Source: a virus (lineage: Duplodnaviria; Heunggongvirae; Uroviricota; Caudoviricetes). From it: 24,660 nucleotides of DNA. The first letter of the stretch is position 1; every line of letters starts with the position of its first letter. The stretch lies in the IMG/VR virus record IMGVR_UViG_2534681934_000023; one strand, 5' to 3'. Position numbers: made by a program. Of the stretch, positions 15,001 through 21,000 are shown in pieces.

Positions 15001-18000
15001 GGAGCATGACGAATGGGTAAAGGAAGCAGTAAGGGGCATACCCCGCGCGAAGCGAAGGACAACCTGAAGTCCACGCAGCTGCTGAGTGTGATCGATGCCA
15101 TCAGCGAAGGGCCGGTTGAAGGTCCGGTGGATGGATTAAAAAGCGTGCTGCTGAACAGTACGCCGGTGCTGGACAGTGAGGGGAATACCAATATATCCGG
15201 CGTCACGGTGGTGTTCCGGGCCGGTGAGCAGGAGCAGACACCGCCGGAGGGATTTGAATCCTCCGGCTCCGAGACGGTGCTCGGTACAGAAGTGAAATAT
15301 GACACGCCGATCACCCGGACCATCACGTCGGCAAACATCGATCGTCTGCGCTTTACTTTCGGTGTGCAGGCACTGGTGGAAACCACCTCAAAGGGGGACA
15401 GGAATCCATCGGAAGTCCGCCTGCTGGTTCAGATACAGCGTAATGGTGGCTGGGTGACGGAAAAAGACATCACCATTAAGGGCAAAACCACGTCGCAGTA
15501 TCTGGCCTCGGTGGTGGTGGATAACCTGCCGCCGCGCCCGTTTAATATCCGGATGCGCAGGATGACGCCGGACAGCACCACAGACCAGCTGCAGAACAAA
15601 ACGCTCTGGTCGTCATACACCGAAATCATCGATGTGAAACAGTGCTACCCGAACACGGCACTGGTTGGCGTGCAGGTGGACTCGGAGCAGTTTGGCAGTC
15701 AGCAGGTGAGCCGTAATTATCATCTTCGCGGGCGCATTCTGCAGGTGCCGTCAAACTATGATCCGGAGACGCGGCACTTACAGCGGCATCTGGGACGGAA
15801 CGTTTAAACCGGCATACAGCAACAACATGGCCTGGTGTCTGTGGGATATGCTGACCCATCCGCGCTACGGCATGGGGAAACGTCTTGGTGCGGCGGATGT
15901 GGATAAATGGGCGCTGTATGTCATCGGCCAGTACTGCGACCAGTCAGTACCGGACGGCTTTGGCGGCACGGAGCCGCGCATCACCTGTAATGCGTACCTG
16001 ACCACGCAGCGCAAGGCGTGGGATGTGCTCAGTGATTTCTGCTCGGCGATGCGCTGTATGCCGGTATGGAACGGGCAGACGCTGACGTTCGTGCAGGACC
16101 GGCCGTCGGATAAGGTGTGGACCTATAACCGCAGTAATGTGGTGATGCCGGATGATGGCGCGCCGTTCCGCTACAGCTTTAGCGCCCTGAAAGACCGCCA
16201 TAATGCCGTTGAGGTGAACTGGACTGACCCGGACAACGGCTGGGAGACGGCGACAGAGCTTGTGGAGGACACGCAGGCCATTGCCCGTTACGGTCGTAAC
16301 GTCACGAAGATGGATGCCTTTGGCTGTACCAGTCGGGGGCAGGCACACCGTGCCGGGCTGTGGCTGATTAAAACGGAACTGCTGGAAACGCAGACCGTGG
16401 ACTTCAGCGTGGGCGCAGAAGGGCTTCGCCATGTACCGGGCGATGTCATTGAAATCTGTGATGATGACTATGCGGGGATCAGCATCGGTGGGCGTGTGCT
16501 GGCGGTGAACAGCCAGACCCGGACGCTGACGCTCGACCGTGAAATCACGCTGCCATCCTCCGGCACCACGCTGATAAGCCTGGTTGACGGAAGTGGCAAT
16601 CCGGTCAGCGTGGAGGTTCAGTCCGTCACCGACGGCGTGAAGGTAAAAGTGAGCCGGGTTCCTGACGGTGTTGCTGAATACAGCGTGTGGGGGCTGAAGC
16701 TGCCGACGCTGCGCCAGCGCCTGTTCCGCTGCGTGAGTATCCGTGAGAACGACGACGGCACGTATGCCATCACTGCCGTGCAGCATGTGCCGGAGAAAGA
16801 GGGCATCGTGGATAACGGGGCGCACTTTGACGGTGACCAGAGCAGCACGGTGAATGGTGTCACGCCGCCAGCGGTGCAGCACCTGACCGCCGAAGTCTCC
16901 GCAGACAGCGGGGAATATCAGGTGCTGGCGCGATGGGACACGCCGAAGGTGGTGAAGGGTGTGAGCTTCCTGCTTCGCCTGACCGTGGCAGCGGATGACG
17001 GCAGTGAGCGGCTGGTCAGCACGGCCCGGACGACGGAAACCACATACCGCTTCACGCAGCTGGCGCTGGGGAACTACAGGCTGACAGTCCGGGCGGTAAA
17101 TGCGTGGGGACAGCAGGGCGATCCGGCGTCGGTATCGTTCCGGATTGCCGCACCGGCAGCGCCGTCACAGATTGAGCTGACACCGGGCTATTTTCAGATA
17201 ACCGCCACGCCGCATCTTGCGGTTTATGATCCGACGGTACAGTTTGAGTTCTGGTTCTCGGAAACGCGGATTGCGGATATCAGGCAGGTTGAAACCAGCG
17301 CGCGTTATCTTGGTACGGCGCTGTACTGGATAGCCGCCAGTATCAATATCAAACCGGGCCATGATTATTACTTTTATATCCGCAGTGTGAACACCGTTGG
17401 CAAATCGGCATTCGTGGAGGCCGTCGGTCGGGCGAGCGATGATGCGGAAGGTTATCTGGATTTTTTCAAAGGCAAGATAACCGAATCTCATCTCGGCAAG
17501 GAGCTGCTGGAAAAAGTCGATCTGACGGAGGATAACGCCAGCAGACTGGATGAGTTTTCGAAAGAGTGGAAGGACGCTAACGATAAATGGAATGCCATGT
17601 GGGGCGTCAAAATTGAGCAGACCAAAGACGGCAAACATTATGTCGCGGGTATTGGCCTCAGCATGGAGGACACGGAGGAAGGCAAGCTGAGCCAGTTTCT
17701 GGTTGCCGCCAATCGTATCGCGTTTATTGACCCGGCAAACGGGAATGAAACGCCGATGTTTGTGGCGCAGGGCAACCAGATATTCATGAACGACGTGTTC
17801 CTGAAGCGCCTGACGGCCCCCACCATTACCAGCGGTGGAAATCCACCGGTATTTTCCCTGACATCAGACGGAAAGCTGACCGCTAAAAATGCGGATATCA
17901 GTGGCAGTGTGAATGCGAACTCCGGGACGCTCAACAACGTCACGGTAAATGAAAACTGTACGATTAAGGGCATGCTGGAGGCGACTCAGGTCAGAGGTGA

Positions 18001-21000
18001 CTTCGTTAAAGCTGTATCCAAATCATTTCCGAAACAGGCTGGTACGTGGGGTAACACGGAAACACCAAACGGGACGGTTACAGTCACCATCAGCGATGAT
18101 CATAACTTTGACCGTCAAATCATTATTCCGCCCATTATCTTTAACGGAATAGCGTATAGCGATCCGGGAAGTGGTAATAACCCGGGAGGTACAAGATACA
18201 CGGGTTATGGTTTTGAAGTTCGCAAAAACGGTGTATTAATCGCATCCAGAGAAACTAAAGGGGCCATTCCCGGTAGCTACAGTGCGGTTATTGATATGCC
18301 GAGTGGCAGGGGAAGCGTCACTCTGGAGTTTAAGGTTTTCCATAAAGGCAATCAGCGGGCAGGTAATATCACCGACTGTACGGTGATTGTGACCAAAAAA
18401 GCGGCTTCCGGCATCAGTATCCGTTGAAATATTTATAACCCTAATAACGGGCGCCAGAAATGGCGCCTTTTTTATTGCAGAAAATCGGGAGGTAATTATG
18501 CGTAAAGTTTGTGCAGCAATTTTGTCCGCAGCCATTTGTCTGGCCGTATCCGGTGTGCCTGCATGGGCGTCTGAGCATCAGTCCACGCTGAGCGCAGGAT
18601 ATCTTCATGCCAGTACGGACGCTCCCGGCAGCGATGATCTGAACGGGATTAACGTGAAATACCGTTATGAGTTTACGGACACACTGGGGCTGATTACGTC
18701 CTTCAGTTATGCCAACGCCGAAGATGAGCAAAAAACGCATTACAGCGATACCCGCTGGCATGAGGATTACGTGCGTAACCGCTGGTTCAGCGTGATGGCA
18801 GGGCCGTCTGTGCGTGTGAATGAATGGTTCAGTGCGTATGCGATGGCGGGTGTGGCTTACAGCCGTGTGTCGACTTTTTCCGGGGATTATTTCCGCGTAA
18901 CTGACAACAAGAGGAAAACGCACGACGTGCTGACCGGAAGTGATGACGCTCGCTACAGCAACACATCTCTGGCGTGGGGGGCTGGCGTGCAGTTTAACCC
19001 GACCGAATCAGTGGCCGTTGATGTCGCTTATGAAGGCTCCGGCAGCGGTGACTGGCGCACTGACGGTTTCATCGTGGGTGTCGGTTATAAATTTTGATTA
19101 GTAACACAGCGTTATGACAGCCCGCCGGTTCAGGCGGGCTTTTTTGTGGAGTGGGTATGGCAGCAGTACAAATATCAGGCGTGCTGAAAGATGGTGCGGG
19201 AAAACCAATACAGAACTGCACCATTCAACTGAAAGCCAGACGTAACAGCACCACGGTGGTGGTGAACACGGTGGCCTCTGAAAATCCGGATGAGGCAGGG
19301 CGTTACAGCATGGACGTCGAGTATGGTCAGTACAGCGTCACTCTGTTGGTGGAGGGATTCCCGCCATCACATGCCGGGACCATCTCCGTGTATGAAGATT
19401 CTCAACCGGGTACGCTGAATGATTTTCTCGGTGCCATGACGGAGGATGATGCCCGTCCGGAGGCACTGCGTCGTTTTGAACAGATGGTGGAAGAAGCAGC
19501 GCGTCACGCAGAGGAGGCGAAGAAGAATGCCGGAGAAGCAGAGACGTCCGCGAGGAATGCCGGCATATCAGCCAGTAAGGCGGAAGCGAGCGCCGCAAAT
19601 GCTGATACTTCAGCAGAGGATGCATCGGAGTCAGCCCGGCAGGCGGCAGAAAGTGCAGCCTCTGCAAAGAAGTCAGAGGAAGCGTCCTCGTCCTCAGCCT
19701 CTGAGGCCGCTCAAAAAGCCAGTGAGTCATTACAAAGTGCAACAGATGCCGAGTTGTCAAAAAAGACGGCAGAAAGTGCAGCCGGTAATGCAGCCAGGGA
19801 TGCAACGACCGCAACAGAAAAAGCCCGGGAATCAGCAGAAAGCGCACAGTCAGCGGAACAAAGCAGAATAGCGGCGGAAGACGCCGTAAACAGAATTCCC
19901 ACCGTGGTGGGGCCTCCCGGACCAAAGGGGGAACCGGGTCCCGCGGGTCCTCAGGGGCCGAAGGGAGATAAAGGAGAGCGTGGAGACACCGGTCCGGCAG
20001 GGGCAACCGGTGAACGGGGACCGGGAGGAGATACAGGTCCGGCAGGTCCGCAGGGGCCGAAAGGCGACAGGGGAGAGCGGGGAGAGACCGGTCTGACAGG
20101 AAGTACAGGTCCACAGGGGCCAAAGGGAGATACCGGGGCAACAGGTCCGGCAGGACCGCAGGGACCGAAAGGGGAAACAGGTGCGGCTGGCCCGGTGGGG
20201 GCTACCGGACCTCAGGGGGCGAAGGGCGACCCGGGGGAGACACAAATACGGTTCCGTCTGGGGCCGATGAGAATTATTGAGACAAACAGCTATGGCTGGT
20301 TCCCGGGTACAGATGGTGCGCTCATCACCGGACTGACCTTTCTTGACCCCAAAGATGCCACACAGGTTCAGGGGATGTTTCAGCATTTGCAGGTCAGATT
20401 TGGTGACGGGCCATGGCAGGATGTTAAGGGACTGGATGAAGTGGGCAGTGATACAGGCAGAACTGGAGAATGACATGAATATTTTGAGAAAGCTTATGCA
20501 GAGTCTGTGCGGTTGCGGAAAGCATGATGACTGTGAAAACGGACGGTCACTTACAGCACAATTGCGACTGGGACCGGCAGACATTCTGGAGTCAGATGAG
20601 AATGGCATTATTCCGGAGCAGGACAGGGTAATCACACAGGTGGTGATACTGGATGCAGATAAAAAGCAGATACAGTGTGTGGTAAGACCGCTGCAAATCC
20701 TGCGTGCTGACGGGACGTGGGAAAATATTGGCGGGATGAAGTAACCCGACAGCTTCACAAAACCGGAGTCCGGCTCCGGTTTTTGTTGTCATGTCCGGTG
20801 GATGTTTGTTAGGAAAGCAAAGATGGCAAAACTGCTGGAGGTTTTGTGGTTGAGTATGCCAATATAATTAATAGATTAAAGAGTTAGTTGTGAAGAAAAT
20901 ATGGATAAACAGGACGACGAATGCTTTCACCGATAAGGACAACTTTCCATAACTCAGTAAATATAGTGCAGAGTTCACCCTGTCAAACGGTTTCTTTTGC

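Follow-up and report, generated by a model that had tools for sequence, protein, structure and literature searches.

A phage 434-type receptor-binding domain at the C-terminus of the lambda-like J protein in an Escherichia coli O157:H7 prophage

Results

Gene J and its reading frame

The stretch of DNA analyzed here (IMG/VR virus record IMGVR_UViG_2534681934_000023; 24,660 nucleotides, hereafter the window) is a lambdoid prophage of Escherichia coli O157:H7 of the Sp3/CP-933K type and matches many complete O157:H7 chromosomes at 99.9%. Coordinates are those of the window, and features lie on the plus strand unless stated otherwise. Gene J, which encodes the central tail fiber or tip attachment protein, occupies 15013–18427 and is placed in the tail operon after M, L, K, and I and before lom and stf, as judged from the order of the open reading frames (ORFs) and from the annotation of the Sp3/CP-933K-type prophage of Z1834. 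Over its whole length, the gene shows 95 to 96% nucleotide identity to J of phages 434, PhiR49_1, and others. All six Pfam families of a lambda-type J score above the cut-off, in the order FNIII-A_GpJ, Phage-tail_3, Ig_J, Ig_J_second, Phage_Tail_Tip, and Ig_GpJ_C.

These families are distributed over two ORFs. The gene is 3415 nt long compared with 3414 nt in intact homologues, and J is split because one extra base is present near 15773 in the alignment with lambda, 434, PhiR49_1, and Z1834. The ORF call gave an N-terminal fragment of 264 amino acids (15013–15807), whose stop is created by the frameshift, and a C-terminal ORF of 889 amino acids in the +1 frame (15758–18427). A single uninterrupted frame of about 1130 to 1140 codons is therefore missing from the window, whereas J of Z1834 is intact. 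The first-pass annotation had read J as a lambda-like protein; the similarity was borne out, with the correction that J is not one open frame here. Protein identities given below were computed after removal of the extra base.

Divergence of the J C-terminus from lambda

The first-pass annotation had also proposed that J tracks lambda for about 970 residues and then diverges over the last 160 or so, at 17930–18427. A pairwise alignment with lambda J, set beforehand as the test, showed that the C-terminal part is far less conserved than the rest. Residues 1 to 970 (15013–17923), which comprise the hub domains, the FNIII domains, the helical shaft, and the central straight fiber, are 97.1% identical to lambda J (942/970), whereas residues 971 to 1137 are identical in only 68 of 173 columns (39.3%), with 17 gap columns and five indel blocks. 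High identity to lambda J residues 971 to 1132, as expected for a lambda-type LamB-binding allele, was thus not found. Residue 971 begins at nt 17924, so that the divergent part is exactly 167 residues long (17924–18424) and is followed by the stop codon at 18425–18427; the proposed coordinates agree with this closely, and the peptide quoted for the region was found in the J frame ending at that stop.

The same boundary appeared at the DNA level. In 150-nt blocks, identity to lambda was 93 to 98% up to about 17860, 81% in the block starting at 17863, and 41 to 52% in later blocks, with a dense run of mismatches starting at 17934. The divergence is far beyond chance: the 501 nt of the divergent end are 100% identical in other O157:H7 genomes and 89 to 95% identical to 434.

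Within the conserved part, the straight-fiber stretch at approximately 17717–17812 (J residues 902–933) is identical to lambda, including F924. A 32-residue J peptide corresponding to this stretch was reported as the trigger of HepS, the abortive-infection nuclease of Gifsy-1 (PMC13043305), and a J protein made from the window gene would be expected to trigger HepS.

Identity and predicted structure of the divergent domain

Comparison with J proteins of other phages identified the divergent domain. Residues 971 to 1137 are 95.2% identical to 434 J (159/167, no gaps), 99.4% identical to PhiR49_1, and 100% identical to J of Z1834 (WP_000515426.1), and the indels of the terminal domain relative to lambda are common to the window J and 434 J. 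The eight substitutions relative to 434 J are V978I, E980Q, S1004A, Q1008K, A1009V, N1019D, S1049D, and R1099G. 434 J (UMO75286.1, OL657226) also has the same length of 1137 amino acids and is 97.8% identical over residues 1 to 970. At its receptor-binding tip, encoded by the last 167 codons, J thus has the phage-434 (h434) allele and not that of lambda.

The proposal that this region is the homologue of the LamB-binding domain of lambda was supported at three levels. First, Pfam PF12421 (Ig_GpJ_C), named [quoted passage not shown] matched 18014–18421 (residues 753–888 of the 889-residue ORF) with 90.9 bits against a cut-off of 26.2, covering profile positions 1 to 134 of 135. Second, sequence matches in the Protein Data Bank (PDB) were A8 gpJ713 (E-value 4e-42) and lambda J residues 961 to 1131 (E-values of about 1e-33 to 1e-34). 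Third, the last 177 residues, when modeled with AlphaFold2 (mean predicted local distance difference test score of 81.2), gave an all-beta beta-sandwich of 13 strands, for which the top four Foldseek matches were 9wcb, 9wca, 8xck, and 8xcj (probability 1.00, template modeling score of about 0.68). 9WCB is A8 gpJ713 with OmpC of E. coli EDL933, and 8XCK and 8XCJ are the lambda fiber in its closed and LamB-bound forms.

Several allele classes were found among database homologues: 434-like (at least 90% identical), A8-like (about 50%), and lambda-like (about 46%). An alignment of the receptor-binding domain (RBD) classes showed common framework motifs with variable segments. The variable domain starts with the junction motif GTLNNVT(V/I)NENC (17924–17959), in which the columns G11, T12, L13, N14, N15, V16, and C22 of the alignment are invariant across all classes; DDHxFDRQ, DMPxGxG, and KKxxxGIS are framework motifs common to lambda J and the window J. 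Variability across the RBD classes did not clearly differ between strands and loops of the AlphaFold2 model (mean entropy of 1.19 and 1.10, respectively), and we therefore do not claim that the variation is confined to loops.

A8 gpJ is the best match for the domain in PDB in both structure and sequence; it has the same fold and is a natural C-terminal variant that uses OmpC (PDB 9WCA and 9WCB; PMC11338833). Nevertheless, it belongs to a different class, the P0052 class in our alignment, and is only about 48 to 52% identical, so that the domain of the window is not of the A8 type. The lambda gpJ RBD solved with LamB (PDB 8XCJ and 8XCK; PMC11101478) likewise shares the Pfam domain and the predicted fold but differs in the identity and indels described above and in its receptor.

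The 434-like right arm

The similarity to 434 is not limited to the J tip. Positions 12483–23027 form one collinear alignment with phage 434 at 92.6% identity, which contains the end of H, M, L, K, I, J, lom, the side tail fiber gene, tfa, nleB, and nleC, whereas the homology to lambda ends at 17983 and is followed only by short pieces. After J, a terminator-like hairpin with a T run is located at 18449–18478 (hairpin 18449–18468), and the annotation of 434 has a terminator at the corresponding position. The next gene is a 434-type lom, which encodes an Ail/Lom outer-membrane protein of 199 amino acids (18498–19097; PF06316, E-value 1.8e-131) and lies in the collinear block. It is followed by the side tail fiber gene at 19151–20473 (phage_tail_N, Collagen, and Phage_fiber_C), which is collinear with stf of 434; its product contains collagen triple-helix repeats and a short C-terminal fiber domain and belongs to the type found in 434, unlike that of lambda stf. 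An 89-residue tail-fiber assembly or fiber C-terminal domain gene at 20475–20744 was assigned from PF06820 and the Z1834 annotation, and the same 270-nt gene is present in 434.

The tail-fiber genes are followed by the effector genes nleB2, nleC, and nleH1-1 (20921–24660). In 434, lom, the collagen-like side fiber gene, and the small tfa precede remnants of nleB, nleC, nleH, and nleD in the same order (effector region at 12405–15001 of the 434 locus); nleB2, nleC, and nleH1-1 are intact in the window, whereas the copies in 434 are partly decayed. 434 and the effector-carrying O157 prophage thus have a right arm in common at about 93% identity. The antisense ORFs at 17638–17973, 18236–18535, and 18441–18923 had no Pfam match, no Rfam family reached the threshold in 14900–21000, and no promoter-like site was detected in 17800–19200; by these checks, the region contains no further concealed feature.

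Prevalence of the allele in E. coli

Among 5426 complete E. coli genomes, the RBD allele of the window (501 nt, at least 90% identity) was present in 2113 (39%), whereas the lambda-equivalent allele was present in only 98. Other complete O157:H7 genomes contain the 501 nt at 100% identity. A single copy of the allele is present in O157 genomes such as TR01 and Z1504, and other J fragments labeled O157:H7 belong to the class with roughly 48% identity. The same junction and C-terminus were found both in finished genomes and in the phage isolates 434, PhiR49_1, Evi, Perceval, and mEp460.

Origin of the frameshift

The right-hand 14 kb of the window differs from Z1834 at only 25 positions, of which 23 are in J and are clustered at 15111–15859, including the extra base. 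The remaining two are T-homopolymer runs at 23406 and 23436, each one base shorter than in Z1834, and may be homopolymer sequencing errors or slippage. The +1 frameshift site (15768–15777) is a hybrid, in which GAGACGCGGCA, as in lambda and EA2, is followed by CTTAC, as in Z1834. The site therefore reads GAGACGCGGCACTTAC and keeps both the extra base of the lambda-like version and that of the Z1834 allele.

We found no counterpart of this site in complete genomes. A 65-mer across it had no exact match in the 5426 complete E. coli genomes (best, 93.7%), and all 302 complete genomes that match across it have the Z1834-like version. The truncated 264-residue J protein is on record in one assembly only (GCA_000249455.2, contig AIFO01000014.1), and the window is equal to this draft contig base for base over the 19,648 nt compared. 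No single natural donor for the patch at 15111–15859 was found: the best phage match was 97.5%, and the best genome match, for 15100–15420, was 99.1% (EA2). With EA2 as a proxy donor, the window changes allele eight times in 750 bp, and one of the tracts, only 6 bp long, lies exactly at the frameshift. A simple gene-conversion tract does not fit this pattern. Most likely, reads from two J paralogs were merged into one consensus in this patch, which would make it an assembly artifact, an explanation that we regard as probable; patchy gene conversion is the alternative.

A probable artifact of this kind raises the question of whether the divergent J tail could itself be a chimeric join. The window equals a draft contig, and this contig probably contains a mixed-paralog consensus elsewhere in J (15111–15859). 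However, the junction and C-terminus recur in the finished genomes and in the five independent phages listed above. We therefore rejected chimeric assembly for the C-terminal divergence, where its probability is negligible, and retain an artifact as the leading explanation for the frameshift only.

State of the prophage

The annotation of the region in Z1834 comprises lysis genes, terminase, a split portal, a ClpP-capsid fusion, tail genes, J, lom, the side tail fiber, nleB2, nleC, nleH1-1, and nleD, and the window is 99.8 to 100% identical to it. In addition to the differences in J, the window lacks a segment of 4815 bp (11486–16300 of the Z1834 locus) that holds the tail genes from the Z homologue of lambda to G and T and the greater part of the tape-measure gene H. 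The gap is bounded immediately by the left end of IS629/IS1203, at position 10490 (element region 10486–11799), and the junction between the two occurred in none of the 5426 complete genomes. The gap is either a real deletion mediated by the insertion sequence or the result of the assembler merging two copies of the element. As in the annotation of Z1834, the portal gene is broken into two ORFs (6331–7455 and 7550–7912), which agrees with the scoring of the Sp3 portal as defective in strain Sakai. In that strain, the host-specificity gene of Sp3 was scored as intact, and the prophage showed no circularization, replication, or packaging (PMC2669165).

A prophage in this state could have lost its similarity to lambda through pseudogene decay instead of carrying a functional alternative domain. 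The split portal, IS629 in H, the 4.8-kb deletion of tail genes, the frameshifted J, and the failure of Sp3 to excise or package are all compatible with decay. By contrast, the 167 codons are open and encode a full-length Pfam domain, they match the intact J of Z1834 and the same 501 nt of other complete O157:H7 genomes at 100%, and the product is 95% identical to J of the viable phage 434; moreover, among the differences from lambda are clean in-frame indels shared with 434. Because of this identity to functional phage genes, decay was rejected as the cause of the C-terminal divergence, and we consider it highly improbable. The divergent end of J is the 434-type domain, although the window J itself cannot make a full-length protein because of the +1 frameshift.

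Prediction of the receptor

Phage 434 uses OmpC, and lambda with the 434 J gene binds OmpC (PMC11101478; PMC3509688); the central fiber of 434 has also been described as OmpC-targeting (PMC12502783). In addition, particles in which only the C-terminal part of J was swapped for natural variants (A8 and 1A2), with a P2 chimera as the side fiber, use OmpC (PMC11338833). Because the domain of the window is 95% identical to that of 434 J, we consider OmpC the most likely receptor of this 434-type domain and LamB an unlikely one, and we hold this assignment with good but not full confidence. The suggestion of the first-pass annotation that the receptor is probably not LamB is thus supported by homology, since the domain is 95.2% identical to J of an OmpC-using phage and 39.3% identical to lambda J.

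Several points weigh against this assignment. The link to OmpC would be by homology, and the allele differs from 434 at 8 of 167 residues. The OmpC-binding domain with a solved structure, that of A8, is a different allele with about 48 to 52% identity. In the window, J is frameshifted, and the genes for Z, U, V, G, T, and most of H are absent. Furthermore, the J tip is not set apart by the classical genetics. In favor of the assignment, the hybrid lambda h434 imm21 consists of lambda up to position 17619 of its record and of 434 from 17637, which places the crossover at J codon 705 to 711 or so, and the N-terminal two-thirds of J are therefore not needed for the 434 host range. However, the 434 sequence of the hybrid continues through lom, stf, and tfa, so that the h434 "host range allele" is much larger than the J tip, and the hybrid alone cannot map specificity to the last 167 residues.

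The eight substitutions could instead have retuned a 434-family domain to a variant of OmpC (that of O157, for example) or to a different porin, for instance OmpF. Several of them are in or beside the most variable segments of the domain. Related chimeras are not alike in the OmpC variants that they accept: EDL933 OmpC permits delivery by both 1A2 and A8, whereas K-12 OmpC permits delivery by A8 only (PMC11338833), and single mutations in J move phage 21 from LamB to OmpC and then to OmpF (PMC11336670). Nevertheless, the domain is 95% identical to that of a phage that uses OmpC, and no data point to another receptor; we consider a shifted specificity unlikely, and OmpC remains the preferred assignment.

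Discussion

In this study, the divergent end of J in an O157:H7 prophage was identified as a receptor-binding domain that is already known, the classical h434 type. The window differs from 434 in that this J is in a chromosomal defective prophage and is frameshifted in the present assembly.

We propose a modular J, in which the first 970 residues (hub, FNIII, helical shaft, and straight fiber) are near-identical among lambda-like phages, and we infer that the terminal Ig-like beta-sandwich has been swapped as a cassette, probably by recombination in the conserved DNA just upstream, around GTLNNVTxNENC. The exchange point would be the left edge of the block of about 10.5 kb that is collinear with 434. 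In the complex of lambda with LamB, loops of three Ig-like domains enter the porin trimer, the bases of the domains move apart, and the change travels up the fiber until the tail opens (PMC11101478). By analogy with lambda J and LamB and with A8 gpJ and OmpC, three copies of the domain in a virion would bind to a trimeric porin and cause the tail to open; for the domain studied here, the mechanism is predicted from homology to be the same as that of lambda, with OmpC as the partner.

In an Sp3-type prophage, the domain would be at best a stored or complementing part. Because the allele matches the intact J of Z1834 at 100% identity and the prophage is present in about 300 complete O157:H7 genomes without excision or packaging, the allele has perhaps been kept for use and not by inertia, as a spare RBD cassette or as a tail tip that complements co-resident lambdoid or Stx prophages in trans (a "defective prophage pool"), and the eight differences from 434 might tune it to O157 OmpC. 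We offer this idea as a speculation with a low probability.

The J tip is a textbook example of a swappable host-range module, and the divergence carries little weight as a discovery. For annotation, the gains are the frameshift in J, the deletion of tail genes, and the right arm from the J tip to nleC as a 434-like module, which ties a classical laboratory phage to the region that carries the nleB, nleC, and nleH cargo; the likely receptor of particles with this J would be OmpC and not LamB. Among E. coli prophages, differing from lambda is the rule, and the LamB-binding tip of lambda is the rare variant.

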